Assembly (NCBI GenBank): GCA_021785435.1
Contig: JAJYFE010000001.1
Span: forward strand, 9,497-73,496
Source of the DNA: Planctomycetota bacterium
Lineage (GTDB): Bacteria > Planctomycetota > Phycisphaerae > WQYP01
Reading direction: 5' to 3'
Length of the DNA: 64,000 bases
The notes under the pieces are model-generated. The model saw only the letters and a program-made list of their open reading frames with translations. It was not told where the DNA came from and searched no databases. Shown here in pieces: positions 16,955 through 51,677 of the stretch. The translations under genes were made by a program, and so were the position numbers. Numbering within the stretch: the stretch's first letter is position 1; every line of letters begins with the position of its first letter.

Positions 16955-18670
16955 TTACGGTGAACGTCCGCCGTCCGGCCAGCGGCGCAGCCAGGCCGGA
17001 CCGATCGGCTTGATCGGAACAGCGCCCGGCGCCTGGACGCTGAGGCGTTGGAGAATGGAGCCTTCCTGCAGATAAAGCTGCGCCTCGGCATCCAGAAAAC
17101 TGACCACAGCCTGGACTTCGGCTAATTGAGCGGCGAGTAAATTATTTTGCGCCAGCGCCACCTGCAGGGAAGTGGTGGTTCCCGCCTGGAATTGGGCGGT
17201 GGTGGCACGCAGAGCTTCGGCCTGGGCGCGGCGGGTGGCCCGGGTGGCCACGATTTCCTGGCGGGCCGTTTGCATTTGGATGTAGGCGGTGCGGACGCTC
17301 AGTTCCACTGTGCGCACCAAATTGGCCAGGGCGGCTTCGTCCGCATCGCGTCCCAATTCCGCGCTCTGATAGTTGGCCTCGGCGGTGCGATTAAAAATCG
17401 GATGACTGAACTGCAGGCCGCCAAACACCGAATAGCCGCCAGCCACGGCCAAATTGGATACCGACCGCGAAAACGCGGCCGAGTAACCGGTTTGGCCGAG
17501 GGTAAGGAACAGGTCTAATTTGGGCAGCAAGCCGTCGCGGGTCTGCACGACTTGCAGTTGGCCGTCTTCAATCTGGAGGCGGGCTTCATTCAGCAGCGGG
17601 CTCAGGCGCAAGGCCAGGGCGGCATGCGCCGACAGGCGCGCCGAAACGTGGGGCTTAGGGGCGCGGGGTTGGTTGAGCAGATGGATTTGGCCGGTCCAAA
17701 ATTTTCCGCCGGCAGGAATAATCAAACTCAGCAGCGTCAGACGGGCGATACGCAGTTCGCCCTGGGCGGCGATGAGCTGCTCGCGATTCGTGGCCACCTC
17801 CGCCGCGGCGGCGGGCAGTTCGGAGGCCGCCGTGCGACCTACCCGTATGAGTTCCCGCGTCTGATGTTCCTGTTCCTTGGCCACGGTAACGGCACGGCGC
17901 AAAATCGCCACGTTCTGGCGGGCTTGGGCGTAGGCCCAATAGGCTTGCACCACCTGGTAGGTGATGGATTGGGCCACGCCCCGCAACTCATAATCGGAAA
18001 TGCGTCGGCCGATCTGGGCCTCACGAATGGCAGCCAGATTAACCCGCAAGCTGGCGCCTTGCAGCAGGGCCTGGGTCACCGTCAGGGAAGCACCTGTGCT
18101 GACGCTTTGGCCGGCGCCGGAGCCTTCCATGTCGCTGAAGTTGGTATTAACGCCGGCCTGGATGCTCGTTCCAGTGGGCAGGTTTTCGGCGACGCCGGCC
18201 TGGGCGGCTTCCGTGTCGGAGGCTCCGCTGCCCGGGAGGCGGCTTTTCCCGGCGGTGGCTTGGGCCGTTAACACCGGATCAAAGACGCCGCGCTGCGCCA
18301 CGACGGCCAGTTGGGCGATGGCGGGTGAAAATCGTTGCACCACCAGGGACGGATTGTTGGTCAATCCCATAATGACGGCCTGGTGCAACGATAATTGCAG
18401 TGGTCCGGCGGATAGTGCGGGAGGATCGGCGTTGGCCCCGGGCGGCGGATCCAGTGCGGCGGGGGCGGCGTTGCGCCTGGCGGCCGCCAGCCCCGCCTGG
18501 GTCATAATCTGATGCTCCAGCGCGGCGTGCATGTAATTTTCGTAGCCGCCGCTATGGATGGAGCCGCAGCCGGCCAGCGTGGCCAGGGCCAGGAACGCCA
18601 GCGCCCCGGCAATGCGCCGCGTCACTCCGCGGGCGCCCGTCGAACTGTTCTGAAAAGGGGGGGCGGGCAT
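16955..18670 (-). CDS. TolC-like outer-membrane efflux factor (lipoprotein signal LAGC); last gene of the MacAB-type operon
   Basis: OEP repeats; start placed at M86 (ATG 18670) giving a signal peptide plus lipobox. The upstream ORF extension is non-coding repeat sequence. Confidence 0.75.
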   Translation of the reverse strand: MPAPPFQNSSTGARGVTRRIAGALAFLALATLAGCGSIHSGGYENYMHAALEHQIMTQAGLAAARRNAAPAALDPPPGANADPPALSAGPLQLSLHQAVIMGLTNNPSLVVQRFSPAIAQLAVVAQRGVFDPVLTAQATAGKSRLPGSGASDTEAAQAGVAENLPTGTSIQAGVNTNFSDMEGSGAGQSVSTGASLTVTQALLQGASLRVNLAAIREAQIGRRISDYELRGVAQSITYQVVQAYWAYAQARQNVAILRRAVTVAKEQEHQTRELIRVGRTAASELPAAAAEVATNREQLIAAQGELRIARLTLLSLIIPAGGKFWTGQIHLLNQPRAPKPHVSARLSAHAALALRLSPLLNEARLQIEDGQLQVVQTRDGLLPKLDLFLTLGQTGYSAAFSRSVSNLAVAGGYSVFGGLQFSHPIFNRTAEANYQSAELGRDADEAALANLVRTVELSVRTAYIQMQTARQEIVATRATRRAQAEALRATTAQFQAGTTTSLQVALAQNNLLAAQLAEVQAVVSFLDAEAQLYLQEGSILQRLSVQAPGAVPIKPIGPAWLRRWPDGGRSP

Positions 18671-18902
18671 CGCGCCGCAGCGAGTCGCCCCGCGGCAGTG
18701 GGTAAACTGTGGCGACTGGCGCGCACGGGCCGGCCCGACGCCTGCGTTACAACCATTTTCATACTCCGCGGGTCGAAGACCCGCCTCTGGAAAATATCCG
18801 CGGGGGCAGGCGGAACGGCCTTGAGGACCGCGGGTGGACTTGCCATGGGGCACACCACTCCCGGTCTGCTCGCGGGGGTTATTTACGCGGGGGCGCCAGG
18901 CG

Positions 18903-30055: not shown

Positions 30056-30217
30056 ATGAGAAGCATTGCGGCCGGGGTGTTTAAGACGCACTGTCTGGCG
30101 CTCAGGGACGTGGTTCGCACCAAGCGACAAAGCGTCGTGATTACCAAAGGTGGACGGCCGATCAGCCAAGCTGACGCCGTTGGGCGGCAAGCCCGATGAT
30201 ATACTACACAGCCCGTA
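30056..30217 (+). pseudogene. Orphan Phd/YefM-family antitoxin remnant, apparently frameshifted or truncated, with no toxin partner
   Basis: MRSIAAGVFKTHCLALRDVVRTKRQSVVITKGGRPI matches the Phd/YefM N-terminus. Frame 0 ends prematurely at 30199, while a +1 shift continues AKLTPLGGKPDDILHSPY* to 30217. Confidence 0.5.
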
Positions 30218-30239
30218 TTGAGACGTACCTTTCGTCAGA

Positions 30240-30268
30240 GTAGAAGCGGCGTCGCGCCGCTTTTCTTG
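30240..30268 (+). terminator. Rho-independent terminator (AAGCGGCG-TCG-CGCCGCTT followed by TTCTT)
   Basis: Perfect 8-bp GC-rich stem plus a T-rich tail, seen directly. Confidence 0.6.
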
Positions 30269-30306
30269 GGCCAGATGCACGCTGGCCTGGCCTCTGGAAT
30301 GCATCA

Positions 30307-31521
30307 TTAATAGCCGTGTGCGGTATGCCTACGGGTCTCGACCATTTCCACCAATTGCCAATAAATCGCGCTCTGCATAATTCCAGAAATGGGCAGGACC
30401 TTGACGTCATAGCCTTTCAACTTGAGCAACGCATCATCCACCGCCCAATAAGGATTCAGGTAGATGTGGCGGGGATTGGTGGTGAACGAAGCCGGCGGCG
30501 GGACGCTGCAGGTGAGGATGCAGGCGCCGCCGCCGCGGAGAATCGAATCGATGGGCGGTTCGTTGAAGAGTTGATAACCGAGAACCAGCGCTGTGTCGCC
30601 GGGACCCGATGGCACGGGCGGATGGGCCGACTGAAACCAGGGGGGAGTAGGCCCATTGCGCATCTCGGCGGGAAACATGTGGGCTTCGTATAACACGTCA
30701 ATGGTATGACCGGAACGATGGGCCGCACGGATCCACCGCGCGGCACGCCAGAGGCCACGGCGATCATGGCGCCAGACTTGGCGCAAAGCTGCCGCCACGC
30801 CGGTGAGATAGCGCTGGCCCAGATTCGCGGCGGACGCCGGCGTAACGGTGCTGCGCTGTTGAAAGGCGGCGCCCATCAGTTTAGCGTCGCGTGCCCGCCC
30901 GCCAGGTCGGCCATAGCTTTGATACATGTTGGGCATCCGGCCGTCGTCCACACAGGCTGTGATAAATTCAGCCGTCCAAGCCCACATTCCGATGACGTTA
31001 CTGACGGATGTGGTGCGGATGGACGGGCGCCCTGACTTCCATGTCCCGGGGGCCGTGGACCGCGGGTAAACAGCAGCGAACCGCGCCGGCGGATTCGCCG
31101 GCGGGATACCGGTAAAGAAAATCACGACGCTGTGGGCTTCACGTGCTTTAAGGAGCAGACGGGTCAGCGCCGGTCCCGGCGTGGGGCGTGCGGCTGCCGC
31201 CAGGACTGTGTCCTTCGGACCCAGCACGGTCCCCGGATGATAGGACTTTATCAGCATCAGCCCGCCGGAACGGCCAACGGCCTCCGCGACAAAACTTTGT
31301 TGGCCGCCGGCCACGTACAAATGACCGCCGTGGATGACTTTGCTTGCGGCCTGTTTGGCCGTTGTTTGCAGAGCGGGTAAGGCGGCGCGCCATTGCCCAA
31401 CTCGGTGCAGCAGGCGGGGAATATAAGCTGCAGCGCCCCCGGAGCCGCGCGCCGTGCTGGCCAGCCAGAGCATGGTCCCAACGACCAAGGTGGCCGATAA
31501 AATCCATTTCAAATGCTTCAT
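30307..31521 (-). CDS. Hypothetical secreted protein (signal peptide MKHLKWILSATLVVGTMLWLASTARG)
   Basis: ORF with an N-terminal signal peptide when started at M98; no family recognised. Confidence 0.45.
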   Translation of the reverse strand: MKHLKWILSATLVVGTMLWLASTARGSGGAAAYIPRLLHRVGQWRAALPALQTTAKQAASKVIHGGHLYVAGGQQSFVAEAVGRSGGLMLIKSYHPGTVLGPKDTVLAAAARPTPGPALTRLLLKAREAHSVVIFFTGIPPANPPARFAAVYPRSTAPGTWKSGRPSIRTTSVSNVIGMWAWTAEFITACVDDGRMPNMYQSYGRPGGRARDAKLMGAAFQQRSTVTPASAANLGQRYLTGVAAALRQVWRHDRRGLWRAARWIRAAHRSGHTIDVLYEAHMFPAEMRNGPTPPWFQSAHPPVPSGPGDTALVLGYQLFNEPPIDSILRGGGACILTCSVPPPASFTTNPRHIYLNPYWAVDDALLKLKGYDVKVLPISGIMQSAIYWQLVEMVETRRHTAHGY

Positions 31522-34393: not shown

Positions 34394-34511
34394 CCGCCGC
34401 TCCGCATCCCGGGGAAACGATGCATTGTAACGCCCGCGCTCCGAGGAGCAACGCGGCGGTTGCGGTAGTGCCCCCTAATCCCGCGGCGCAGTTCCCTGGG
34501 GCTGTGACAAG

Positions 34512-34565
34512 TTGTTCCTGGTTCCCGCTCTTGCTCCCGCTCCCGCCCTTGATTGAGGGCTTTCG
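34512..34565. repeat. Fifth, diverged copy (opposite orientation) of the long-stem hairpin element, about 120 bp upstream of the metG start
   Basis: The reverse complement reads CTCCTGATCGAAAGCCCTCAATCAAGGGCGGGAGCGGGAGCAAGAGC, matching CTCCTGATCGAAAGGCCCTCGATCAAGAGCAGGAGCAGGAGC. Confidence 0.7.
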
Positions 34566-35146
34566 ATCAGGAGCATGACCGGCAGCGCGAGCAAGAACGG
34601 CGATGATGCCATCGCTCCCGTTTAGCGGTCAGTCCCGATCCGCGGATCGGGACTGGATTTTCAGGGCAGTTCCTCATGCCCCTACGGAGCACCTGCAGAG
34701 CATGAAAATCGGTCCAATCCGGTGCCCGGCGGTCCCGACACATCGGGATAGCCGGTGCTGTTGAGTCAGGAGACAAAATCCCGATGCGGCAGGAGACGCC
34801 CATCGGGTTCCCTATCGCCGCTGCTGATTCATCACCGCGCCACGGCGCCACGACGGACGGACGATTTACTCCCGATAGCCCCGGTGGACACACTCCAATG
34901 TGCTGTGTTTTTATGTAGTAGGCACACTCCGATGTGCCGTAGGCCTCGCCTTCCCGCCGGTCCAAACGGGCTTGTGGCCCGACGGCATGTAGGATCATGC
35001 CTGCTACGTTGCGCCGTTGGCATCCCGCTTCGCGTCGTCGCGGCTTTGCGTGACAGCGTCCGCGATCCCATGATTCATTCCGCGTTCCTACTAAGAAAAA
35101 TCGCCACGCCCGCCCCGAAAGCCGCGGGCAAGGGGGCGGAGCGCGG

Positions 35147-35460
35147 CTCAGAAAAGCATGTTGAAGCCGGCCGTCCGGAAGTGCCGGTCGTTGGTGAAGG
35201 CGTCCGTTATACCGAGGCGGCGCATGACGGCGAAGGAGACATGGTCGGCAATGCCGGCACCCGTTGCGCCACCGTTCTCGTAGGCCGCCCAAGCCGTCTC
35301 CTAATCTTCGGTCCGGGGCGTTAGCAGGCGCCCCGAGGCACCCAACGCCTTTCGGGCCTGGGCGACCAAGCCGCGGTAGGCCCGCCGGGCCGCGGCGTGC
35401 CATGGGTCGATCCGGTCCCACTGTGCCAGCAACCCCACGGTGTCCAAGAAGACGACACTC
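35147..35460 (-). pseudogene. VapC-like PIN-domain toxin pseudogene (in-frame TAG at 35301-35303)
   Basis: N-terminal part MSVVFLDTVGLLAQWD... and C-terminal part ...IADHVSFAVMRRLGITDAFTNDRHFRTAGFNMLF are PIN-like, separated by an in-frame amber codon. The middle is shortened and the conserved Glu is missing. Confidence 0.55.
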
Positions 35461-35675
35461 ATGGTTGGTGCTCATTGTGGCGTTGGGACACGTCGGTTTC
35501 TCCGGAAGCCAAGGACTGCCCCAGCGATTCGTAGATGCGTTGCTGCGCCGCGCGGTCGGCCTGGTCGTCGTCGAGCACCCTCAGGTCAAACGCCACGCGT
35601 GACCGGTCCGGAAGGAAGGCCGAGCCGTTCCAACGGACGAAAGATGCCGTTTTCATAAATTGCTTGAATCGTCAT
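35459..35675 (-). pseudogene. DUF104 (AF2212-PG-type) VapB-like antitoxin pseudogene (frameshifted)
   Basis: MTIQAIYENGIFRPLERLGLP is the DUF104 N-terminal consensus, preceded by GGAGG. The frame breaks at about 35590 and continues as ...VAFDLRVLDDDQAD... in another frame. Confidence 0.55.
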
Positions 35676-36039
35676 ACTTCGGCCTCCGCGCCTACCGGCG
35701 GGGCGGCGGTCCGGCCGTCCCTCATTAATATAATACGGAGCATCGGTGGCATCCGCAGTCAGGGCCTGCGCAAGCCCGGGACGTGACAATTTTTTGCAGA
35801 GGGCCGAACACTATGCCACAGGCACGTAAGATTGGAACCATCGCGGCTGGGGCCAGCGGACCGCCCCTTGGGGGGCGGCCTTCCAGGCGGCCATGGTCTT
35901 GGATCGAGTCGGGCCGATCGCCCCAGTTTACCCGCTGCCGCGGGGCGACTCGCTGCGGTGAGATGCCCGACCCCAGGGGGCCTTTCAACCATCTCTCAAT
36001 CTTGAAACGCGCGGCATACCCCGAAAAATGATCCCACCA

Positions 36040-36500
36040 CCGCATTTGCGACGGCCACTTGACACTTGACATGCGGCTCGCTAGGATGTATTGTTGTTAT
36101 CGTTAACAGACCAATAGGTGACGTTAACATATAGAGTGTGGCCGGTCCTGGAAACGGCGGCCTAAGAGGCTCTTGATCATGCCGGTGACGCTTCGCGACA
36201 TTGCGGATAAAGTCGGGGGCTGCATGATGATGGTGTCGCGGTACGGCGACACCGCCCGATTTGCGACGGGATTGGAACCGGCACTTAACACTTGACATAC
36301 GGCTCGCTAAGATGTATTGTTGTTATCGTTAACAGACCAATAGGTGACGTTAACATAGAGAATGTGGCCAGTCCCGGAAACGGCGGCCTAAGAGGCTCTT
36401 AATCATGCCGGTGACGCTTCGCGACATTGCGGATAAAGTCGGGGTCTCCATGATGACGGTGTCGCGCTCCCTGAACGGTGAAGCGCCGTCGATGGTTTCG
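36040..36500 (+). repeat. Tandem direct duplication (roughly 229 bp, two copies) covering the promoter, operator, RBS and first roughly 20 codons of the LacI-family regulator
   Basis: CACTTGACA(T/C)(G/A)CGGCTCGCTA(G/A)GATGTATTGTTGTTATCGTTAACAGACCAATAGGTGACGTTAACAT...ATGCCGGTGACGCTTCGCGACATTGCGGATAAAGTCGGGG occurs at about 36055 and about 36284. Confidence 0.85.
36292..36334 (+). promoter_or_regulatory. Sigma70-like promoter (TTGACA-17-TATTGT) with an overlapping LacI-type palindromic operator TGTTATCGTTAACA
   Basis: -35 at 36292-36297, -10 at 36315-36320, operator at 36321-36334; a duplicate is at 36066-36107. Confidence 0.5.
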
Positions 36501-37703
36501 CCCGCCTTGAGGCAGCGCATCCGGAAGGCGGCGGAACAATTAGGCTACCATCCGAATGTCAACGCCCGGGCGTTGGCCCGCAACCAATCGATGCTGATCG
36601 GCGTGCTTTATAACGGCGTCAATTTCCTTCAGAGCATGCAATTTCTGGCCGGTTTGCAGGAGGTATGCCTCGCCCGCGATTACGCCCCGCTTTTCTTAAG
36701 CCATCAGAATGCCGCCATGGAGCGGGCCAATCTGCGCCTGTGCCTGCGGCGCAAGGTCGATGCGCTGATCGTCAACCCGTGGGTGGAAAACGAGGATCCT
36801 GACCCATCGCGAATGGGCCGGGACTTCCAGCCGTCGGCATCACCCTACCGGAAAATCGTAAAGTCCGGCTTGCCGATGACCGAGGTTTTTGGACGGCGGG
36901 TTCCCGGGGTTTGCTCCGTGCGCTACGACCACCTTGCGGAGGGCAAGCTGGCCGCCAGGCATTTGATTGAGCACGGCCACCGGCGAATTGTGCTGTTCAC
37001 CCACGCCTGGTACCGGGCCGTGGAAAAAATACCGGGCTTGTGTTTTGACGCCTATGAACAATGGCAGGGCTATGCCGCCGAGATGCGCCGCATCGGCGCC
37101 GAGCCGGTCGTCGTGGCGCACCCACTGACCTTGCAGCCAACCATCCGCAGCGATCCGATGGCATTCCACCAAGCCGCCATGGAGTCCGTCCGCGGCGTGT
37201 TCGATCATCCGGCTGCGCCCACCGCGGTCCTGTGCTACTCGGCGTACCAGGCCCTGGCGGTGCTGAAAATAGCGCAGGCTCGCGGGATCCACGTGCCGAC
37301 CGAGCTGTCCCTTGTCTCCGGCAACGACTTTCCATTCGCCTGGCCTGACGGCCAGCGTCTCACCTGCATTGTCCGGGATCCGACGGAGGCTGGGCGCGTT
37401 GCGGCGAAAACGGTGTTCGCCCAACTGGACACCGGCACCGCGACAGACGCTGCCATCGCGCCGACCCTTCAGCCGGGTGAAACAGTCGCGGACCTAAAAG
37501 CTCAGGCGGTGAAGACGGCACCGCGCGGTTACGGCAAGACTATAACCGGTCAGAGAGTAATCCCCATGCAGACCGATGGCCGGCAGTTTAGTCGCCCGCG
37601 GCGACCCGTGGCGAACGCGATCCGCCGACGCGGTAAACAAGATGGACCGCCCAGGCGCCAAGAACGCTGGGATCAAGCTTTGGTAATGTCAGGAAGCGTC
37701 TGA
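36405..37703 (+). CDS. LacI-family transcriptional regulator (about 80-aa C-terminal tail beyond the usual length, containing a dispersed-repeat motif)
   Basis: N-terminal HTH LRDIADKVGVSMMTVSRSLNG and periplasmic-binding-fold core. No stop until 37703, although the family is usually about 340 aa. Confidence 0.75.
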   Translation: MPVTLRDIADKVGVSMMTVSRSLNGEAPSMVSPALRQRIRKAAEQLGYHPNVNARALARNQSMLIGVLYNGVNFLQSMQFLAGLQEVCLARDYAPLFLSHQNAAMERANLRLCLRRKVDALIVNPWVENEDPDPSRMGRDFQPSASPYRKIVKSGLPMTEVFGRRVPGVCSVRYDHLAEGKLAARHLIEHGHRRIVLFTHAWYRAVEKIPGLCFDAYEQWQGYAAEMRRIGAEPVVVAHPLTLQPTIRSDPMAFHQAAMESVRGVFDHPAAPTAVLCYSAYQALAVLKIAQARGIHVPTELSLVSGNDFPFAWPDGQRLTCIVRDPTEAGRVAAKTVFAQLDTGTATDAAIAPTLQPGETVADLKAQAVKTAPRGYGKTITGQRVIPMQTDGRQFSRPRRPVANAIRRRGKQDGPPRRQERWDQALVMSGSV

Positions 37704-37833
37704 GGTATAAGGAGTCCCGCCATGTAGACACATCAAAGTCATCCGCGTAGTGGTTCCGTTTGGAAAATCCCAAAGGCTCGCCGTTCGCGGAGTCGTTACG
37801 GCGGCAGTTCACCTTTTTTCAAAGGAGTCGCTC

Positions 37834-39225
37834 ATGTTTGGTTCACTGAAAATGGATCGCGGAGTCGCCAAGGCGACGAACTTAACCTTGGGTACTGGTA
37901 ATACTGGCTCTCTTTTAAAGGAGATTACAATGCGAGCGTACCAAAACATCCAATTCGTAGTCGCAGCCGTGTTGTCCCCCGTTACCTGGCTGCTTACTGC
38001 GGTGGCCCTGCTGCTGAACTCCATGGTGCTGAGCCTGGCCCGGGGACTGGGCGCCTACGGCGACCTGGAATCCCTGGTCAGTCGCGCCGGATTCCGGTCG
38101 TGGCGACGCCGTTTCAGAGGCGCGTTGGCGTTTACCCTGATCGAGCTGCTGGTAGTGATATCAATAATAGCTATTCTCATATCTATATTACTTCCAGCAT
38201 TGGCCAAAGCCCGGGAACTGGCCAACCGCGCGGTCTGCATGGCCAATATCCGCGGGATCATCCAGTCCATGGTGACCTATGCTCAGTCGAACGACGGCAC
38301 CTTCCCGGCCACGCCAACCGTCCAGTCCCCCGGCGAGGTGGGCAACGGGCCGGATTTGCCGAACAACTCGGCCATCTCCGGCCAGACCGCCCAGGAAGTG
38401 ACGGCACTGTGGTATTACAACATGGTCTACCCAAGCGGCCCGCCGGTCACCCCGCTGGCCTGCATGTGGCTGCTGGTCCTCGAGGGTTACGACGCGCCGG
38501 CGAGCTTCGTGTGCCCATCCGATCCCTTGGCGCAGGGGCCGTCGCTGGAATACTGGACGCCGCCAAGCAACGGCTTCACCAGCGCCACCTACGTAGGCAA
38601 CTTCGGGTTAATGTCCCCGACCCAGGCTGTGGCGAACCCTGTCAACGATGTCGGCGCGGGGGAGAGCTACTCCATCGCTTTCCCTTGGCCGACGGAGTAC
38701 GACGCTGCGATAGGGGCGAACAACATGATGCCGGCCCAGCCCGGCCGCTGGTGGACCACGGACGGTGCGGACAGCGAGGTTCCGCTGGTCAGCGACATGG
38801 CGCCGGTCGATGGCGGCGGCGCAAGCACGGTCTCCTTGGGATCCGGACCGGGAACTGGCGCCTTCCAACGCGTCACGACCACGCTGCCAACGGCCAACAC
38901 CTATGGGCCCTATATTTACAACTCCGGCAATCATGCCGGCGACGGCCAGAATGTGGGTTTTGGCGATGTTCACGTCACTTGGGAAACTTCGCCCTATGTG
39001 GGCGAAAATGGTGATAATATTTTCACCTACACCACCGCCACGGGTGTGGTCAATGGCACCACGGACACGAATCAGAGGGGGACGTCGGGGTACCCGGGAT
39101 ACCCGCCGACGGGGTACGGCGTGGTGCCCTACTACATCAAGACGCTGGCCCCGCCCTTTGACATCTGCATGGCGCCGGTGCGCACGGTAAACCCGACCAC
39201 GGCGTCGCAGAACATTGCGTGGTGA
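37834..39225 (+). CDS. DUF1559 domain protein with a prepilin-type N-terminal methylation motif, preceded by an unusual roughly 100-aa N-terminal extension
   Basis: [43 protein letters not shown] plus the C-terminal [12 protein letters not shown] motif typical of DUF1559. AGGAG precedes ATG 37834; an alternative start is 37930. Confidence 0.7.
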
Positions 39226-39246
39226 ACTGACCGAACGCCGAGGTAT

Positions 39247-39277
39247 CCCCGGAGGAGCGGCGGCCCGTCCTCCGGGG
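39247..39277 (+). terminator. Strong GC hairpin (CCCCGGAGGA-loop-TCCTCCGGGG) downstream of the DUF1559 gene; candidate terminator without a U-tract
   Basis: 10-bp perfect stem seen directly. Confidence 0.35.
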
Positions 39278-39360
39278 TGGGAACAATAGCCAGCCCGTGT
39301 TTTCGGGCGCGGCAACGTCAATGAACGTCAACACAGCCTGATTTTGAAGGGGCCTGAAAA

Positions 39361-42048
39361 ATGAAATCCTTCTTGTTCCACCGTTGCGGTGCTTCCCTGG
39401 CCGCCATGATATGGTTCGGCCTCGCGCTAGCCCCGGTCTGTCGCGCCGGCGCCGGCGGTTGCCGCCACAGGCCATCTCCGGCGTTCATCAACACCTGGCT
39501 GGTGTTGGGAACGTTTCCCAACACCCCCTCCAACACCGGCTTGGGCCGCGCCTGGATACCCGAGGCCACGGCCTCGCCGGAGGAAGGCGCTGTCGCCGGC
39601 GGTCATACCTGGCGCTACTTCGACGACCATCTTTTTTCGCGCAACTACGACAACTACCAGGACCTTTTCAGCTATTTCCACATCGAACGCCGGGAGTCAG
39701 TGGCCGCGAAGGTCGCCTACGCTTTCACCTACCTTTACACGCCCCGGGCCCGGAACGCCCAGCTCCGCATGGCTGCGGACACGTCGGCGAAAGCCTGGCT
39801 CAATGGCCAGGTCGTCACCCGCTTTCTGGACGGCTCGGGGCGCCGGCAGGACAACCGGACAAACGTCGCACTCCGTGCGGGCTGGAACCGCCTGCTGCTG
39901 AAGATCGCCAACAGCGAAGATGGCCGCTTCGGCTTTTACGCGCGGGTTTGCGCCCGCAGTGGCGATAATCTGCCTGGCTTGGTCATCTCGCCGGATGGGC
40001 CGGGGGACGGACAATTGCAGGTGGAAACCAAAGCCATGGCTGATATCAGGCCGCGGCTGATGGGGCTAACCAAGTCCCCTGACATGCCGATCGGCTGGCG
40101 CTCATGGCCATACGTGGGCGCCCAACCGGATCCAAACAACCCGGTTTTTGACCTGGTCAAAGGGGGGGCGCTCACGACCTTCATCGCGGACCGGAACACA
40201 TTGCTGCAGGCGTCGAATTTCCAATTTGCCGCCCAGGGCGGTACGCCGCCCTACGATTGGAACCTCGGCGCCCATGGCGGCCTCCCGCCGGGCCTTTCGC
40301 TCCAACCCAACGGAACCATCACGGGCACGATTTCGCCCTACGCGAAGCTGGGCACGTATCATTTTACCGTCTGGGTGATGGACGCCGGGGGAAAACTGGC
40401 CTCGAAGAGGCTCTCGATAATCGTACGCCCGCGGCCCAACAAATGGTACGAGGAGGCTCGCCTTGTCGGCCTGATGGAAGGAACCGGGACCCTGGAACCG
40501 GCCGAGATCCCACCCTACGTCCGGATACTCAAGCGTGAGGGGTACCAGGCGGTTATGGTGAAGGCGTTCAACAATGGCGGCATGAGGTTCTGGTACCCGA
40601 CGAAGTTCAGCAGGGTTCCGGTGGAGCGTAACTACGTTGCACCTTGGAAGGAGGCCGTAGAGACGCAGGGCATGAGGTTCGGCGTGTACATGGGCAACAT
40701 AACCAACCTCCCGGGCCTGCCGTTCTCAAGCAATCAGGCGGTTCTGGTGCTCCAACAGGTCATGCAACGGTTCCACCCGGCCGTGCTGTGGTTTGACTGG
40801 TCGGGGCTGAACGCGGTTTCCCCCGACGCCATGTTCAGCGCCATCCGCACCCTCGACCCCAAGACGGTGATCGTTCTCAACGGCGCGATGCGCGGCAGCA
40901 CCGGCGACTGGGACGAAATCTGCTTCGAGGGCTGGGGGGCGTGGGGGAGCCGTGCGCGGGCTTGGGGCGTCTGGCCCAGGCCGATTCCGTGGCCACTGAA
41001 GAACTCGCCGGAGGCATGGCGACTGATGGTCCAGCCCGGCTGGGGCCCTTACAACCCCACTAACATCCTCTCGAGCTGGAAACAGATGCTCCGCATCCAG
41101 ATTTCCCTGATCGGCGCGGGCTTCGTGGCGGATGTCGACGCGATCCCCTGGCTGGGGGGAGGCCCGTCGCCTCTTCCGCTTGGCCGAATGCCGGAGGTTG
41201 TCAACCATGATAAGATGGCCGACTGGGCTAATCCGTCAGGCATGCCGCCGCTTTATCCGTCGTTTACCTGGGTCAATCCCGGCCCGTTGCATCCGGCCTC
41301 CTGGGGTTATGACGTTATCAACCTGCGACGGAATGTGATCTATCTCCACATACTTAAGAACCCGCGCGGCAAGACCGGGCTTCCAGGTGATCGGACCCTA
41401 ACCGTCCGGCCGGTCACTGAAAGAGTGAAGGATGTGGTCTGGATGAACGCCAACAAGCCGTTGAAATTCGCCCAGCACCTCACCCAGACCGATCACGGTT
41501 TGACCATTGATACCACGGGTGTCAAGCCGAGCCGAATTGACACCGTTATTCGCATCGACCTAGAACATCCCCTGCCGCGGCCGTCGCTGGTGGCGCGCCG
41601 GGCCGTTCCCGCCGGAAATCTGGCCTACCGCAGGCCGGCTCGGTTGCTCAGCGCGGACGGCTCGCGTGTATTGCCGCCCAGCGTCCACAATCGTGCTCGT
41701 TACGGCGTGGACGGCGACCTCTCGACCTGCGCTGAGGCCGCCAATGATTGGGCATGGGCCTACCAGGTGGATCTGCAACGGCTCTTCCGAATCGGGCGGA
41801 TTGACGTTATCTTCACCCAGCGCGCGTACGCCACCGAATACAATATCCTGCTCTCGGTCAATGGCCTGCAATGGAAACAGGTGGCCCATCTGACCACGAA
41901 TCACGGCGGCGCCCACGTAACCCGAATCCAGCCAACCTTGGCCCGCTATGTGCGGATACAGGCGGTAAAACCGGATGGGCCTGGCCAACCTGGGGCGCAA
42001 ATGGCCATTGCGGAATTGCGGGTATTCGCCGCGAATGAGAAGCCGTGA
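39361..42048 (+). CDS. Large secreted multidomain glycoside hydrolase: lectin-like beta-sandwich, putative Ig (He_PIG) domain, GH29-like TIM barrel, C-terminal F5/8-type C (discoidin) domain
   Basis: Signal peptide; AWLNGQVV...GWNRLLLKIANSEDGRFGF (sugar-binding-like); PYDWNLGAHGGLPPGLSLQPNGTITGT (He_PIG); ...GMRFGVYMG...VLWFDWSG (GH29-like); WAWAYQVDLQRLFRIGRIDVIF...LSVNGLQW (discoidin). Confidence 0.7.
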   Translation: MKSFLFHRCGASLAAMIWFGLALAPVCRAGAGGCRHRPSPAFINTWLVLGTFPNTPSNTGLGRAWIPEATASPEEGAVAGGHTWRYFDDHLFSRNYDNYQDLFSYFHIERRESVAAKVAYAFTYLYTPRARNAQLRMAADTSAKAWLNGQVVTRFLDGSGRRQDNRTNVALRAGWNRLLLKIANSEDGRFGFYARVCARSGDNLPGLVISPDGPGDGQLQVETKAMADIRPRLMGLTKSPDMPIGWRSWPYVGAQPDPNNPVFDLVKGGALTTFIADRNTLLQASNFQFAAQGGTPPYDWNLGAHGGLPPGLSLQPNGTITGTISPYAKLGTYHFTVWVMDAGGKLASKRLSIIVRPRPNKWYEEARLVGLMEGTGTLEPAEIPPYVRILKREGYQAVMVKAFNNGGMRFWYPTKFSRVPVERNYVAPWKEAVETQGMRFGVYMGNITNLPGLPFSSNQAVLVLQQVMQRFHPAVLWFDWSGLNAVSPDAMFSAIRTLDPKTVIVLNGAMRGSTGDWDEICFEGWGAWGSRARAWGVWPRPIPWPLKNSPEAWRLMVQPGWGPYNPTNILSSWKQMLRIQISLIGAGFVADVDAIPWLGGGPSPLPLGRMPEVVNHDKMADWANPSGMPPLYPSFTWVNPGPLHPASWGYDVINLRRNVIYLHILKNPRGKTGLPGDRTLTVRPVTERVKDVVWMNANKPLKFAQHLTQTDHGLTIDTTGVKPSRIDTVIRIDLEHPLPRPSLVARRAVPAGNLAYRRPARLLSADGSRVLPPSVHNRARYGVDGDLSTCAEAANDWAWAYQVDLQRLFRIGRIDVIFTQRAYATEYNILLSVNGLQWKQVAHLTTNHGGAHVTRIQPTLARYVRIQAVKPDGPGQPGAQMAIAELRVFAANEKP

Positions 42049-43400
42049 AGGCACGGGCCGGTCGGCCGGGGACTCCGGCTGAAAAAGACCAGAAAGCCCC
42101 AACCGCAGCGCCGTATCATGTCGGAACCTTGGTGTACAGTCGCGGCGACTTGCAGCGCCTGTTTTTCTGGCTGCTGCTGGGCGATTTCGCGTCCAACGTC
42201 ATGGGGGCGGCCCTGCCGACCCTGCTGCCGCTGCAACTCAGCGCCCGTGGCGTATCCGCCGCCACGATTGGCTGGGTGCTTTCGCTCGCCCCCCTGGCCA
42301 CGATTATCTTCTCTCCGTTTCTGGGCGTCTGGAGTGATCGGCTGCGCACGCGCTGGGGGCGGCGCCGGCCGTTCCTGATCGTCAGCACGCCCATCGTGGC
42401 GGCGGGGATGCTGTTACTGCCCCACATTCAAAATATGCTCTTACTGCAGGTGGTGGTGACGGTCGTGCAGATCGCCAACGTGCTCCAGACGATCCTGCTG
42501 TATCTGTATGCGGACATCATGCCGCCTTCACTGATGGGGCGCTTTATGGGGGGCTTCAGTTTCGTCGGCGCCCTGGGAACCATGGCCTTTCAATATTTTT
42601 TGGTGCCGTGGTTCGGGACGGCGCCGACGATGGTCTGGACGATCTGTGCGATCTTCTATTTCGTGTTGTTCCAGCTGTCCGTGCACAACGTGCGGGAGGG
42701 GCAATATCCGGCGCCCGAACCGACCCGAAGGTCGCATATACTCCGCGGCTATCTGAAAGACGGGGCGGGAAGCTGGTACATCTGGTGCCTCTGGGCGGCC
42801 CTGGGGATGAACGCTCTGGCCGGCCCGGCGGGGCTTTACTACAATCTTCTCTGCCGGGACCAGCTGGGCATGAGCATGCGCGCGATTGGCATGATGAACA
42901 CGGTCGCGACCATTCCCCGGCTGTTTGTGATGTTGCCGGGGGGATGGCTGATTGACCGCTTCGGACCGCGCAAGCTGTGGGGCCTTTTCAGCCTGCTTAG
43001 CGGCGGCGTGACCCTGGGCGCCTGGTTCTGGGTGCGGGGCAGCGGCGCGATGCTGCTTTATATGCTGCTCAGCGGTGCCCTTGGCGCCTTTACGAGCGTG
43101 GCCCTCATGCCCATGCTGTATGCCCATCTGCCGAAGGACAAATTCGGCCAGCTGGTCAGTATGCAGTCCGTGGTGATGTTTACGTTGATCTTCCTGAGCA
43201 CCAACGCCGTCGGACAACTTATCACGCTGCGGCACGGTGATTATTTTATCACGTTTCTCTATGGAGGACCGATTATGATGCTCACGCCGATTTTCATACT
43301 CCTGCTGGCCCGGGCCAAGAACCCATTCGCCGGGATGGCGACCGCCCTGGCCCGGGACGAGGGTGTTCCGGTGAGGGAGGGAGGTTTTGACCACAATTAG
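42045..43400 (+). CDS. MFS/GPH-family sugar:cation symporter
   Basis: 12-TM protein with the WSDRLRTRWGRRRPF motif typical of GPH/MFS; GTG start overlapping the upstream stop (GTGA). Confidence 0.8.
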   Translation: MKARAGRPGTPAEKDQKAPTAAPYHVGTLVYSRGDLQRLFFWLLLGDFASNVMGAALPTLLPLQLSARGVSAATIGWVLSLAPLATIIFSPFLGVWSDRLRTRWGRRRPFLIVSTPIVAAGMLLLPHIQNMLLLQVVVTVVQIANVLQTILLYLYADIMPPSLMGRFMGGFSFVGALGTMAFQYFLVPWFGTAPTMVWTICAIFYFVLFQLSVHNVREGQYPAPEPTRRSHILRGYLKDGAGSWYIWCLWAALGMNALAGPAGLYYNLLCRDQLGMSMRAIGMMNTVATIPRLFVMLPGGWLIDRFGPRKLWGLFSLLSGGVTLGAWFWVRGSGAMLLYMLLSGALGAFTSVALMPMLYAHLPKDKFGQLVSMQSVVMFTLIFLSTNAVGQLITLRHGDYFITFLYGGPIMMLTPIFILLLARAKNPFAGMATALARDEGVPVREGGFDHN

Positions 43401-43724
43401 CCCAGATTCCGCACCACGGTGCCATGGGGTTCACGGAGATCCCAGCGCGGCGAAGCCGCAACCAAACACATAGCCCCCGGCTATGCCGGGGCTAGCGGGT
43501 CCGCCGGGCAGACAAAGTTTGCTATCGAACCAAAATCTTCGCACGGCGCAAGGATTTTGATGGATTGTGGCACGGAGAAATAAGGAGCTGCGAACTTTCT
43601 AGGATTAAATCCCGACGACCATCGGGACTTTCCGAAATCTCGGTATCCCGGCGCACCGGGATTAATTTCAACAACCTCGGCGAACTCTCTGTGGTGAAAT
43701 ATCGGGGTTAGACTGATTTCACGG

Positions 43725-45443
43725 ATGGACGGATACGATGATCTAAACATTCCTTTTATCCGTGCCGCCGGTGTAATCCGTGGTTATTTGGAGCGGTCGG
43801 GGATGGACTCAAGGATGCCCACGATGCCAACCGATTGTCGTTACATGCTTCGCTACTGCCTGATGGCCTACAACGCCGGGCAGCGCATTGCCGAGCTTGT
43901 GGAATACTGCCGCCGTTGCGGGATCGAATCGGTCATGATTCACACCGAATCGCACTCGATGCACCTGCGGCATCGCACGGTGGAGGAAGCCGAGGCCTAC
44001 ACGGATATCCTCGTCCGCTGCGCCGCGGCGTTGCGCGCGGCGAGGATCGAGTTTGGCCTGAACATCTGGCAGACGCTCGGCCATCACGACGCGGCGTTTT
44101 CATCGATCGCCCACTTCGGCTGGCGTCCCATGGTCGGACACGATGGGCGGCTTTCCGCGCGGTCGCCGTTTCCTTTGGCGCTATGGCCGCGCACCGGCGC
44201 GCGCCGTGCCCAATCATTTCCCGGGGTCGGCCCGACCGTTCCGTTCAGCGATGTACCGCATGGTTGGCCGGGCCATTGCGTGCCGCAACCCATGGGTATG
44301 TCGGACGCGCGCATCCGCTGGCGCGACGCGCGCGGGGGCGCCGAGGTGGAAGTGCGGTTCACGAGCCGCGCGACCTGGGACGCCTTTCCGATTTTGTTGT
44401 GGCAACCGCCGATCCTGCCGTCGCAACTCGATGGTTCGCGCGACGGTGTGCAGTGGATGTCGGCGCGACCACAGCGGGGACGCGTCGAGGGCATTCTGCT
44501 CGTCGGCGCGATCCGCCAAACCGGTCGGACGACTTGGAAGGTGTTCATACCCGGTAAGCCGGCGGCGGCGCGGGAACAGGACGTGGTGGAGTTGACGCGT
44601 GAGCTGACGCTGGTCCACATGCCGGCGAGCCTGGAGCCGGTGCGGCACGGATATTTGGTGAAAACACGACGCGGCACCGCGGACGTGCGGATTACCGGGG
44701 GCGTGACGAAGGTGGAAACGCATGGGGGCGAGGCGGCCATGCCAAAGCGTTCGTTCGCGTTGACCAACGAGAGTCCGTATCTGCGTGTGTGGTTGAAGCG
44801 AGGCGCCCTGGTGCGGGTGCGGGCGAAGTTCACGCCGCGGCGCGCCGCAAAAAACTTCTCGCTGGAGAAGGACACGGAGCAGTTGCACGATTGGGTGCGG
44901 CATTCGGTGTTGTTGCCGACGGAGCGCCTGGTGTTTTCGTTGGGTTGCTTCCGTAAATGCATGGAAGGCACATGGGGGCATCCCGTCCAGGAGGATCACG
45001 TGTCCATTACGCGGGAGGGGCTGGGTTACGAAACCCATGAAGTGGATTTCGGCCAGGCATGGGCGCCAGGTCACACGACCTGGGTGCAGCCGTGGAGGCT
45101 TTCGCTGATCCTTCTTCATACGGATGGGTTGAAGGGAAAGATGGCGCGAATTCATCTGCATGCCTACGATTATGTTCCAGGGCTGAATCGAACGTTCGTG
45201 GTGACCGCTAATGATCGGTTGCCGAATGGATTTTCACAATGGTTGATTCCGGAGGGGCCCGCGGCGCGGTTCAGCCCGCAGTCGGTGTGCAGTTTCAGCG
45301 CAACCGATGCACTCTTGGCGGAGGGCAAAGTGAAAATCAGCCTAAACTCGGTGCTGCGTCATCCGGTGAACGATTGGGTCAAGGACAGGGCGTTTTCATT
45401 ATTACTCGCCGACGTATGGGTGAGCGTGCGGGAGAATCCATGA
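43725..45443 (+). CDS. Hypothetical protein (572 aa), no family recognised
   Basis: Long ORF in the same orientation as its neighbours. Competing antisense ORFs are Arg-rich artefacts; the central part is itself Arg-rich, so only part may be coding. Confidence 0.35.
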   Translation: MDGYDDLNIPFIRAAGVIRGYLERSGMDSRMPTMPTDCRYMLRYCLMAYNAGQRIAELVEYCRRCGIESVMIHTESHSMHLRHRTVEEAEAYTDILVRCAAALRAARIEFGLNIWQTLGHHDAAFSSIAHFGWRPMVGHDGRLSARSPFPLALWPRTGARRAQSFPGVGPTVPFSDVPHGWPGHCVPQPMGMSDARIRWRDARGGAEVEVRFTSRATWDAFPILLWQPPILPSQLDGSRDGVQWMSARPQRGRVEGILLVGAIRQTGRTTWKVFIPGKPAAAREQDVVELTRELTLVHMPASLEPVRHGYLVKTRRGTADVRITGGVTKVETHGGEAAMPKRSFALTNESPYLRVWLKRGALVRVRAKFTPRRAAKNFSLEKDTEQLHDWVRHSVLLPTERLVFSLGCFRKCMEGTWGHPVQEDHVSITREGLGYETHEVDFGQAWAPGHTTWVQPWRLSLILLHTDGLKGKMARIHLHAYDYVPGLNRTFVVTANDRLPNGFSQWLIPEGPAARFSPQSVCSFSATDALLAEGKVKISLNSVLRHPVNDWVKDRAFSLLLADVWVSVRENP

Positions 45444-45462
45444 AAACTGTGTGGGTAACATG

Positions 45463-45880
45463 GCCATGACGGTGGAGCTCGGCCGGCAGGTGGCCTTGGT
45501 AACAGGCGCGGGCAGGGGCATGGGTCGGGCGATCGCCGACACCCTGACTGTCAACGGCGCGCGTCATCTACGGCGATGTGGACATGGCCTCCGTTACGGC
45601 TGGCGCATGGGCCTCTCCCAACGCCAAGCCCATGGCCGCGGATGTGGTCGATGAAGAACAGGTCGAAACGGGAATTGCCGACGCCATCAGCGAGTCTGGC
45701 CGGCTCGATATTGTGGTCAGCAACGCCGGAATCAACACACTTTATCACCGGGCGAGAATTGACGAATTTACCCGTGATGAAGAAGATCACCTCGTTCAGG
45801 TGGATATCACCGGAGTCCATTCCATAAGCAAATTTGTTTCCTGGGATGACTTTTCGAAAGGTCATAAAGGTGCGTTTTGA
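45463..45880 (+). pseudogene. Short-chain dehydrogenase/reductase remnant: frameshifted at about 45555 and truncated before the YxxxK catalytic region
   Basis: TGAGRGMGRAIA Rossmann motif in one frame; DIVVSNAGI...VDITGV in the next frame; ends at the start of the following gene. Confidence 0.55.
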
Positions 45881-47006
45881 GTCGGAGGACGTTACCTGGC
45901 TGACGGAAGCCTGTAAACGCCAAATCGAGGGATGCCAGCGCAAGGCGTTTGATGGAACGACCCTTTTTACGCCCGATGGAACCGGGCACTATGGCGCGCT
46001 CTGGACACGGGATTTCTATTACGTCACCACGGTCTTTGATTTGCTCGATCCGCGCGAGGTCCGTGCCGCGCTCGAGTACCTTCTGCGCGGGCAACGGGCC
46101 GATGGGGTGATGCCCGACCGAAGGCAGGCCGACGGAACATCCGTTTATTGCGCGGGTTCGCAGGAGCAGCCCGTGGGCCTGCCGCCGCTCGATAATTCCG
46201 CCTTTTCGGTCTTGCTGGTGTGGGAGTATGTGCGCCACACCGGTGAGGCGGCTTTTTTTGGAAAACACCGGGATGGCTTGCTTCGGGCGCAGGCGGCCAT
46301 CCCACGCGGTGAAAAGGGATTGGTGTTCAACGATCCCGTAAGGCCCCATTCGCCGTACGGTTTTGCGGATACGGTCGGCCAGACTGGCGAGCTTTTGTAC
46401 TGTTCGCTGCTCGATTGGCAGGCGTGGACCGCTTTGGCGGCCATGTTGGACCTGCTGGGTGATCGTTCCCAAGGCGCCCGTTGTCGCGCCCGGGCGGATC
46501 TGATCGTGCGGGGCATTCAGACCCTCTGGGATGAAGCCAGTGGGATGTTCCTGGCCGCTTCCCATGATTGCCGACAGATTGATATCTGGGGCAGCGCCTT
46601 TGCGGTTGCAGTTGATTTCCCGCTGCCCTTGGCGCGACGCGGTAAAATCACCGCGTATCTGGCCCGGAACATCGACAGCATTTCCCAAGCGGGACAAATC
46701 AGGCACTTGCCGGCCGGCGCCTACTGGCAGCGTTTACTGGCTCCCATCGCGCCGGATCATTACCAGAATGGCGGATATTGGGGAACCGCGACGGGTTGGG
46801 CGATGCTGGCTTTGGCGCAGGAGTATCCCGAAATAACCCGACGGCTCTTTCATACCATGGTTGCCGACTACCGCCGGAGCGGAATTTATGAGTGGATTTG
46901 CGGCGACAGGCGAACGCTCCCGCGCTATGTGGCCAGCGCGGTGAATCCCTTGGCAGCGGCCCGGCAGCTTCAGTCCCAGTTCGGATTCCCACATGAGGAT
47001 AGCTGA
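45834..47006 (+). CDS. Putative six-hairpin (alpha/alpha)6 glycosidase-like protein
   Basis: Pattern ...QNGGYWGTATGWAMLAL... and aromatic-rich repeats suggest an (alpha/alpha)6 barrel; family uncertain. Confidence 0.45.
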   Translation: MFPGMTFRKVIKVRFESEDVTWLTEACKRQIEGCQRKAFDGTTLFTPDGTGHYGALWTRDFYYVTTVFDLLDPREVRAALEYLLRGQRADGVMPDRRQADGTSVYCAGSQEQPVGLPPLDNSAFSVLLVWEYVRHTGEAAFFGKHRDGLLRAQAAIPRGEKGLVFNDPVRPHSPYGFADTVGQTGELLYCSLLDWQAWTALAAMLDLLGDRSQGARCRARADLIVRGIQTLWDEASGMFLAASHDCRQIDIWGSAFAVAVDFPLPLARRGKITAYLARNIDSISQAGQIRHLPAGAYWQRLLAPIAPDHYQNGGYWGTATGWAMLALAQEYPEITRRLFHTMVADYRRSGIYEWICGDRRTLPRYVASAVNPLAAARQLQSQFGFPHEDS

Positions 47007-51105: not shown

Positions 51106-51677
51106 AGGCCTACCTACCTTCTTAAGATGTCTATCGTCGCGGATCCGCCCACGCCGATTCCCGCACGCCGCCGTCGCGAAGCGCGCCGAAGCCTCTGCCC
51201 CACGCCCGCTGCACCCAACGCCAAAACGACCCGTCAACTTCCTCTTAAAATAACAACTCGCCAAGAAAAAGGGCGACCTGAAGGGACCGGATGGCGACTC
51301 GGTGGCGTTGCCGCCACGAGCGTAAATGGATCTGCGTAGCGCGAACCAGTCCCCCGGGACACCGCATTTTAACGCGGTGAAGGGTGCATGACAGATTTGG
51401 CGCCCGTGCCGTTCCCAGTGCGCCCGTTTTGCGCAGCGAGGTAAGGACGGGACGTGATTGTACCGCACACGGCTATTAATGATCTATTCCAGAGGCTGGG
51501 CCAGCGTGCAACGGGCCCAAAAAAGCGGCGGGACGCCGCTTCTACTTTGACGAATGGTACGTCTCAATAGGAGCGGTGTGTCGTATATCATAGCCCGGCG
51601 GTCGCCGCGGGCGACTAAACTGCAGCGACGGGTGACGCCGGGCGAACTACCCCAGCCCGTGAACGGTTACGCGAAAC

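Follow-up and report, generated by a model that had tools for sequence, protein, structure and literature searches.

The 64-kb stretch of DNA analysed here (hereafter, the window) comes from an uncultivated planctomycete and carries an intact gene for a LacI-family repressor whose control region and 5' end occur twice in tandem (Table 1). The predicted repressor has a LacI-type helix-turn-helix domain (HTH_LacI, PF00356) at residues 4-51 (E = 4.4e-17; 62 bits against a cutoff of 27) and a periplasmic-binding-protein domain (Peripla_BP_3, PF13377) at residues 184-360 (E = 3.9e-20), with a further match to PF00532 (24.5 bits against a cutoff of 22.2). Nearly all of its 506 homologues are annotated as LacI family. 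The C-terminal tail of about 70 aa (residues ~361-432) gave no Pfam match, and no obvious leucine heptad was seen in it by eye. The genes 3' of lacI all lie on the + strand with short gaps between them, and they encode a prepilin-type N_methyl protein, a He_PIG/F5_F8-type-C protein, an MFS sugar transporter, a 572-aa unknown protein and an MGH1-like glycoside hydrolase. Scanning with the sigma-70 consensus, which may not suit Planctomycetota, returned seven sites between positions 35500 and 38000, where 0.8 were expected, and one weak site in the 10.9 kb downstream, where 3.4 were expected. Because the density of such sites is high at lacI and low downstream, the duplicated region probably controls the whole cluster; by its sequence, it is probably the control region of a lacI-led glycan-utilisation cluster, for which we infer an operon structure. 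Two minus-strand ORFs upstream were considered as a toxin-antitoxin pair, a candidate that was dropped as it had no Pfam support.

The first-pass annotation of this DNA had described a tandem duplication of the promoter, operator-like sites, ribosome-binding site (RBS) and first ~20 codons of a LacI-family gene, and both repeat finding and the Pfam assignments bear this out. Tandem Repeats Finder reports a single tandem array at 36056-36466 (period 226, 1.8 copies, 94% matches, score 745), and the gap-free repeat pair 36046-36240 and 36272-36466 is 92% identical. A short pair at the 5' edges (36035-36054 and 36250-36269) stands instead at an offset of 215, which implies an 11-nt indel; pairwise alignment places the extra sequence, GATTGGAACCG (36270-36280), in copy 2. 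The period is thus 226 bp and not the 229 bp first given, and the identity between copies is 92-94% (6-8% diverged; 11-13 substitutions plus the 11-nt indel) and not ~95%. The two copies are adjacent and co-oriented, they meet at a single novel junction (36241-36249), and the duplicated part of the coding sequence amounts to 62 nt (20 codons plus 2 nt).

Table 1. Features of the duplicated control region, the repressor gene and the downstream cluster, in window coordinates.
Feature	Position	Strand	Basis
Copy 1: 5' edge motif, promoter, operator block, 5'UTR, RBS and first 62 nt of lacI-type CDS	36035-36240	+	Repeat finding, strain alignment
P1 region (predicted): overlapping TTGACA (36059)-17-TAGGAT and TTGACA (36066)-17-TATTGT (-10 at 36089-36094; whole promoter 36066-36094)	36059-36094	+	Sigma-70 consensus scan
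Candidate operator block a: O1a TGTTATCGTTAACA (36095-36108), O2a AGGTGACGTTAACA half-site (36116-36129)	36095-36129	+	Motif search, strain alignment
RBS AAGAGG of truncated ORF, 9 nt before ATG; kept in all copies	36164-36169	+	Sequence, alignment
Truncated ORF MPVTLRDIADKVGGCMMMVS..., 38 aa plus stop	36179-36295	+	ORF translation
Perfect 8-bp inverted repeat across the junction, GGTGTCGC-GGTACG-GCGACACC	36232-36253	+	Repeat search, RNA fold prediction
Junction GTACGGCGA, ~9 nt between copies	36241-36249	+	Alignment, strain comparison
Copy 2, runs into the intact gene; has the 11-nt GATTGGAACCG (36270-36280)	36250-36466	+	Repeat finding, alignment
P2 region (predicted): TTGACA (36292)-17-TATTGT (-10 at 36315-36320; whole promoter 36292-36320) intact; overlapping upstream promoter degraded (TTAACA, TAAGAT)	36285-36320	+	Sigma-70 scan
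Candidate operator block b, identical to block a: O1b (36321-36334), O2b (36342-36355)	36321-36355	+	Motif search, strain alignment
RBS AAGAGG of intact lacI-type gene	36390-36395	+	Sequence, alignment
Intact LacI-family repressor gene, 432 aa	36405-37703	+	Pfam, homologues
Co-oriented downstream cluster	37750-47006	+	Pfam, gene order, promoter scan

The TTGACA-17-TATTGT promoter that had been read in both copies is indeed present in both, and alignment with related strains (described below) found it intact in 18 of 18 main-clade copies; the -10 is TATCGT in the clade of the outgroup locus L003. A second predicted promoter, TTGACA-17-TAGGAT, overlaps it on the upstream side. This promoter is intact in all copy 1s, and from the first -35 hexamer to the -10 not a single substitution was found in the seven copy 1s that are complete (7/7). 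In copy 2, the overlapping upstream promoter has undergone several independent changes (TTAACA, a 7-nt deletion, TAAGAT), of which TTGACA>TTAACA is confined to copy 2 of the window lineage.

The proposed operator motif TGTTATCGTTAACA was likewise recovered in both copies. It begins immediately after the -10 hexamer, is palindromic at 12 of 14 positions with a central CG, and has its centre 78 nt ahead of the start codon. Two helical turns (21 bp) downstream of that centre lies the centre of a second CGTTAACA half-site. Allowing up to two mismatches, TGTTATCGTTAACA occurs in the 64 kb at 36095 and 36321 only (0.06 expected), and CGTTAACA occurs four times in the duplicated region and once elsewhere (0.95 expected). 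A search with up to three mismatches to the ideal palindrome found no further operator sites before the downstream genes or elsewhere in the 64 kb. The doubling of operator-like sites that had been proposed thus takes the form of two identical 35-nt blocks, TGTTATCGTTAACAGACCAATAGGTGACGTTAACA, and this block is invariant in 21 copies from 13 loci. Across these copies, none of its 35 columns varies, compared with 11 of 39 in the promoter segment (seven of them indel columns), 10 of 49 in the rest of the 5'UTR and 5 of 62 in the first coding nucleotides (0/35 versus 26/150 in the other three segments combined; p=0.005, Fisher's exact test). Single-copy strains also have the block unchanged, so part of its constancy in copy 1 may be owed to the short time available.

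Published LacI-family regulators provide a reference for such sites: even palindromes with a central CG were reported for 1173 of 1303 transcription factors, the sites lie mostly between -140 and -30, and 72% of the regulators are autoregulated (Ravcheev et al., 2014; PMC4052901). Judged by its sequence, the candidate operator fits this pattern (even palindrome, central CG, position -78), with a core of 14 nt compared with the usual 16-22. As a phylogenetic footprint, the invariant 35-nt block gives a predicted operator for this uncharacterised planctomycete LacI-family regulator and shows where the control region of the glycan-utilisation cluster probably lies. No match to the block was obtained when JGI metagenome contigs were scanned for its exact pattern.

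Within copy 1, the start codon opens a truncated reading frame whose first 21 codons are a fragment of the lacI N-terminus carrying V14G, S15C and T18M. Its tail is read from upstream non-coding sequence, and its TGA stop sits within the -35 hexamer of copy 2. All changes in the lacI-derived part are non-synonymous and fall at conserved helix-turn-helix positions. The ORF gave no Pfam match, and neither its sequence nor its length is kept among strains, which speaks against a functional leader peptide; in the strains whose repeat period is 219 bp, the frame is shifted, giving 48 aa with a different C-terminus. The first-pass annotation had called this a truncated decoy ORF. The reading frame exists, but its sequence marks it as a decaying gene fragment and not as a functional decoy protein. 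It may well be translated from P1 transcripts, with no sign of a functional peptide. The 38-aa upstream ORF is called in some metagenome-assembled genomes (MAGs); being a gene fragment, it should not be annotated as a protein.

The perfect inverted repeat that spans the junction (Table 1) corresponds to a predicted hairpin in the P1 transcript. An intrinsic terminator was considered for this hairpin but not adopted, as it has no adjacent U-run and was not called by a terminator scan. A structured RNA in the P1 leader was rejected: the fold did not clearly exceed shuffled sequence in stability (z = -1.87; 6 of 100 shuffles folded as well), and no Rfam family was assigned. The one hit of the Rfam scan of the duplicated 5'UTR, whalefall-1, fell below threshold (15.5 bits against 37, E = 0.64), lay outside the repeat and is put down to chance.

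A comparison with related strains, as the first-pass annotation had proposed, was made over 13 loci, drawing on the window, L001, contigs of nine further variants of the 90%-identity protein cluster, and the 89%-identical P0002. All relatives were found through the protein-cluster route. The lineage of the window organism is rare. No relative turned up when GTDB representative genomes were scanned with the LacI protein. A genome scan based on the adjacent methionyl-tRNA synthetase (MetRS) supplied the taxonomic placement, with 93% identity to MAG YP1.bin19, with the next relatives, from Sedimentisphaerales/Phycisphaerae, at ~52%. The sole contig with a close MetRS, L013 (93%), ends before the lacI side and contributes no synteny. 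Eight of the 13 loci have two copies and five have one. The period is 226 in the window, L001, L007, L008 and L009, the last of which begins inside copy 1, and 219 in L004, L006 and L012; the single-copy loci are L002, L003, L005, L010 and L011.

The junction provides a specific marker of the duplication. The 26-mer that spans it, GTGTCGCGGTACGGCGACACCGCCCG, is present in 8 of 8 two-copy assemblies and 0 of 5 single-copy ones; the single-copy joint reads CCGCATTTGCGACGGGATTGG. The closest relative, L001 (GCA_027429555.1), is a separate 12.5-kb MAG contig that encodes exactly the same LacI protein and holds both copies; it starts at window position 35683 and differs at 3 of 12,021 positions (99.975% identical). 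The two-copy assemblies derive from different samples, projects and assemblers (MEGAHIT k141, SPAdes NODE and TPA MAGs, from ENA and NCBI), and they differ from one another by SNPs within the repeat. Neither the junction nor the copy-1-specific variants occur in single-copy genomes, so the structure cannot have come from mis-joined single-copy reads. The duplication is genuine, with assembly-level support from eight independent assemblies.

A site-by-site table of the 21 copies shows that all copy 1s differ from copy 2 and from the single-copy outgroups by four derived states: CCAGTCC>CCGGTCC and CTTAATC>CTTGATC, both in the 5'UTR, and GTC>GGC at codon 14 (V14G) and ACG>ATG at codon 18 (T18M). 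As every copy 1 has these four states and the same junction, the duplication arose once. In a gene tree built from the non-duplicated part of the gene (nt 63-1299), two-copy alleles lie on every main-clade branch. The deepest of these branches, L008, is two-copy and differs at up to 39 of 1237 nt (~3%), and L003 forms the outgroup at ~6.5%. The duplication is therefore old and predates the divergence of at least eight sampled strains. It had initially been called recent, a description contradicted by the four fixed copy 1 substitutions, the 6-8% divergence with its indels and the spread of two-copy alleles across the main clade.

After its origin, the array continued to change. AGAGAA>ATAGAG is found in all copy 1s except that of L008, and TCC>TGC in some copy 1s. 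L004, L006 and L012 have lost one unit of (CACTTGA)x2 from copy 2, giving the 219-bp period; this 7-nt deletion is slippage within an internal direct repeat. Copy 2 of L007 and L009 has copy-1-type bases, which points to gene conversion. Over 7.3 kb, the single-copy locus L005 matches the window at 99.82% identity, and its one copy equals copy 2 of the window, including the lineage-specific TTAACA, with the copy-1 upstream flank joined to copy-2 sequence within the shared ATTTGCGACGG. By its sequence, L005 has clearly lost copy 1 secondarily, through a deletion bounded by the short direct repeats found at both 5' edges. L002 begins with a 5' part of copy-1 type, equal to copy 1 of L008, and continues with a copy-2-type (ancestral-type) 3' part; it represents either a collapse by crossover within the operator block, where the copies are identical over a long stretch, or an allele that was never duplicated, and recombination makes these two histories indistinguishable. 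L010 and L011 each pair a gene of the main clade with upstream sequence of L003 type and are thus recombinants. On evolutionary time, the array is unstable, through gene conversion, the 7-nt slippage deletion and at least one clear collapse.

The reading that we favour, with a probability of roughly 0.7, is that an old duplication of single origin has placed two tandem, self-repressed promoter-operator modules at the head of a lacI-led glycan-utilisation cluster. For this reading, we infer promoter activity, repressor binding, operon structure and the quantitative effect. The predicted modules, P1-O1a/O2a and P2-O1b/O2b, stand 226 bp apart and precede one intact lacI-type gene. Without inducer, the repressor would bind the CG-centred palindrome abutting each -10, together with the downstream half-site, so that both promoters would be repressed, and transcripts from P1 would additionally be blocked at the occupied downstream operators. 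A sugar effector would free the repressor, and both promoters would then fire. The net effect to be expected is modest, namely tighter repression and/or higher induced output. Each predicted promoter is the sole one in some natural strain (the copy-2 promoter in L005, the copy-1-type promoter in L002), so both are probably active; this suggests promoters of the ordinary kind in place of the titrating decoy that the first-pass annotation had proposed. DNA looping between the modules is not supported: their spacing is 226 bp (21.5 turns) at five loci and 219 bp (20.9 turns) at three, and with a spacing that varies among strains, geometry-dependent cooperation between modules is not conserved.

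Changes in the two copies are distributed in a complementary manner. Copy 1 has no events from the -35 region through the -10 and eight in the 5'UTR plus coding stub, copy 2 has four and one in the corresponding segments, and the operator block has none in either copy (p=0.007 for 13 events, Fisher's exact test; p=0.026 when two conversion-like copy 2 changes are counted as well). Within copy 1 alone, the 72 nt from the -35 region through the operator block contain no events, versus eight in the 111 nt of UTR and coding sequence (p=0.023). These numbers are small, and the pattern is suggestive, not proof, of constraint on copy 1 as promoter and operator and on copy 2 as RBS and coding start, with the redundant parts drifting. 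Alternatively, recombination with single-copy alleles could keep the flank-adjacent halves homogenised, neutrally. A stronger version of the argument, in which selection keeps the two modules as subfunctionalised control, seems doubtful to us. Under it, copy 1 would serve as the main promoter with extra operators and copy 2 as the coding start with roadblock operators, and the one-copy, two-copy/226 and two-copy/219 alleles would be heritable settings of repression and induction in the natural population.

It is also possible, though unlikely, that the duplication is real and old but that selection maintains no function of the upstream copy: it would persist simply because 200-bp repeats that are 94% identical are slow to be deleted, and conservation of the copy 1 promoter and operator would be owed to shortness of time and/or recombination with single-copy alleles. 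Single-copy strains coexist with two-copy ones, so the second module is dispensable, and the single-copy L002 and L005 lie inside the same clade, which makes copy 1 in particular dispensable. A neutral history would also suit the unconserved spacing of the modules, the exclusively degenerative changes of the coding stub at its conserved positions, a total of just 13 substitution events, and the frequent recombination recorded by the L010 and L011 recombinants and the L007 and L009 conversion patches. The event-free 72 nt of copy 1 fit it poorly, however, and the same promoter segment in copy 2 took four independent changes over the same genealogy. Furthermore, two copies have been retained at 8 of the 10 sampled loci with a certain or most likely window-type upstream flank.

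A different origin would be import: homology-facilitated illegitimate recombination with a diverged donor would have brought in copy 1 along with a ~1.57-kb strain-specific segment (34470-36034), in which case the divergence between copies would be partly original and no measure of age. The flanks offer some grounds for this. L003-type loci are without this segment, which in the window is found between metG and lacI, and have in its place a dispersed ~250-nt repeat before the promoter; copy 1 starts, at ~36035, just where the missing segment ends. Over 19 nt, the 5' edge of copy 2 (36249-36267) matches L003 (256-274) at 100% identity, whereas the edge of copy 1 differs at 3-4 positions plus the 11-nt indel. 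The 11-nt GATTGGAACCG is absent from window copy 1 and from L003, and present in L012 copy 1 and in L005. The 9-nt junction has no clear template: it is unlike the continuation of copy 2 and unlike the flank upstream of copy 1, and is partly similar to the L003 sequence upstream of the L003 edge motif. Against an import, V14G and T18M alter the conserved GVS and TVSR positions of the helix-turn-helix, changes that are unlikely in a functional donor gene and point to decay after duplication. Copy 1 also matches the outgroup-like consensus from the first -35 hexamer through the operator block, and no donor-type single-copy allele was found among the 13 loci or in the protein database. On balance, we consider an import improbable. 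An assembly artefact, which the first-pass annotation had allowed for and which would consist of concatenated strain alleles or an assembler-expanded repeat, is extremely improbable: the window does come from a metagenome-type assembly with several co-occurring strains, and a number of related contigs break off within 200-720 nt of the gene, as in a hard-to-assemble region, but one and the same junction recurs in eight assemblies of differing project and assembler, among which SNPs particular to individual strains and a variant with a 7-nt indel are found; no single-copy allele contains the 9-nt junction or the four copy-1 substitutions, and the copies are 6-8% diverged, not identical.

The favoured arrangement of two self-repressed modules has its closest counterparts among the autoregulated local LacI-family regulons of the RegPrecise type (Ravcheev et al., 2014; PMC4052901). 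As in those regulons, HTH_LacI is joined to a periplasmic-binding-protein fold, the candidate operator is an even palindrome around a central CG and lies 78 nt before the start codon, and the regulator adjoins sugar transporter and glycoside hydrolase genes, with autoregulation likely. The window differs in that the control module and the 5' end of the gene are doubled in tandem, in that each module has a second half-site 21 bp downstream, and in that the repressor has a C-terminal tail of ~70 aa that matches no family. To our knowledge, Planctomycetes are a phylum outside those reconstructions. A general search of the literature found nothing specific on duplicated autoregulated promoter/operator modules.

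In the lac and gal systems of E. coli, repression from multiple operators involves DNA looping (auxiliary O2/O3 of lac; OE/OI of GalR), and extra operators can raise the local repressor concentration. Like these systems, the locus described here places several candidate operators of a single LacI-family repressor no more than a few hundred bp from the promoter. Unlike in E. coli, the repressor tail shows no obvious leucine-heptad motif that would suggest tetramerisation, on inspection of its sequence, the helical phase between modules is not conserved at spacings of 226 or 219 bp, and the extra operators bring their own predicted promoter and arose by duplication.

As an event, the duplication belongs with the small tandem duplications that arise in bacteria by slippage or unequal recombination. 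Like them, it is head-to-tail and a few hundred bp long, with gene conversion between copies, collapse in close relatives, a slippage indel in (CACTTGA)x2 and a truncated pseudo-ORF. Such duplications are usually transient; this one, by contrast, has persisted through strain diversification, with four fixed differences plus later ones, and shows a complementary decay that resembles subfunctionalisation of promoter and coding parts. No new mechanism is revealed here: the event is of an ordinary class, with an unusually complete allele series. Over 13 loci, this clean natural series displays single origin, complementary decay, gene conversion, a slippage indel and reversion.

Finally, the two modules recall the tandem promoters (P1/P2) of single bacterial operons, in that two co-oriented sigma-70-like promoters lie ~226 bp apart and the transcript from the upstream one would pass through the downstream one. 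Here, in contrast to promoters that answer to different sigma factors or regulators, the two predicted promoters are paralogous and their operators identical.

In strains of the window type, metG is separated from lacI, the gene for a LacI-family repressor whose control region and first 62 coding nt are tandemly duplicated, by a segment of ~1.57 kb that is absent in L003, the outgroup in the lacI gene tree. Two ORFs lie on the minus strand of this segment, neither of which has a match in Pfam. As the right boundary of the segment coincides with the left edge of the upstream copy of the duplication, its insertion and the duplication of the lacI control region may be linked. The junction between the two copies is spanned by a perfect 8-bp inverted repeat (arms GGTGTCGC and GCGACACC). 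Codons 19-21 of lacI make up one arm, and the duplicated unit's upstream edge supplies the second; therefore, short inverted repeats bound the duplicated segment, which may stem from the way the duplication formed or be a coincidence.

Features in and around the lacI locus, by window or contig position
Feature	Position (strand)	Description
Segment, ~1.57 kb	window 34470-36034	ORFs of 278 aa and 65 aa, both on the minus strand
Dispersed repeat, ~250 nt	L003 ~279-532; window 51381-51598 (+); window 30196-30326 (-)	copies 86-90% identical
Short dispersed repeat, 57 nt	window 35918-35974 and 18659-18715 (-)	91% identity between the two
Junction inverted repeat	window 36232-36253	8-bp arms
MITE-like insertion, ~140 nt	L002 1413-1550	orthologous window site between 35822 and 35823
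LacI C-terminal tail, ~70 aa	window 37485-37703	residues ~361-432

Dispersed repeats also occur near lacI. Directly 5' of its promoter in three related contigs with a single copy of the control region (L003, L010 and L011) lies a ~250-nt repeat with inverted, GGGTGCA-type ends, possibly with a duplicated CCGG(T/C)ACTTGA target on both sides. The 57-nt repeat has one copy in the intergenic region 5' of lacI and the other ~17 kb away on the opposite strand. Another single-copy contig, L002, carries an AT-rich, MITE-like insertion with terminal inverted repeats (GGAGTCTGTC...GACAGACTCC) that neither the window nor the two-copy contig L001 contains.

Assemblies seem to break repeatedly at the polymorphic repeat region 5' of lacI: 7 of the 12 related contigs (L001, L005, L007, L009, L010, L011 and L012) begin 200-720 nt 5' of the lacI start, at positions inside or just ahead of the repeat or dispersed-repeat region.

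LacI itself ends in a basic tail, C-terminal to Peripla_BP_3, for which no family match was found. Part of the tail-encoding DNA (37543-37592) is 80% similar to L003 126-175, which lies 5' of the lacI gene of that contig and includes a hairpin (GGTCGCC-TAG-GGCGACC); judging from this resemblance, the tail may be derived from a repeated element.
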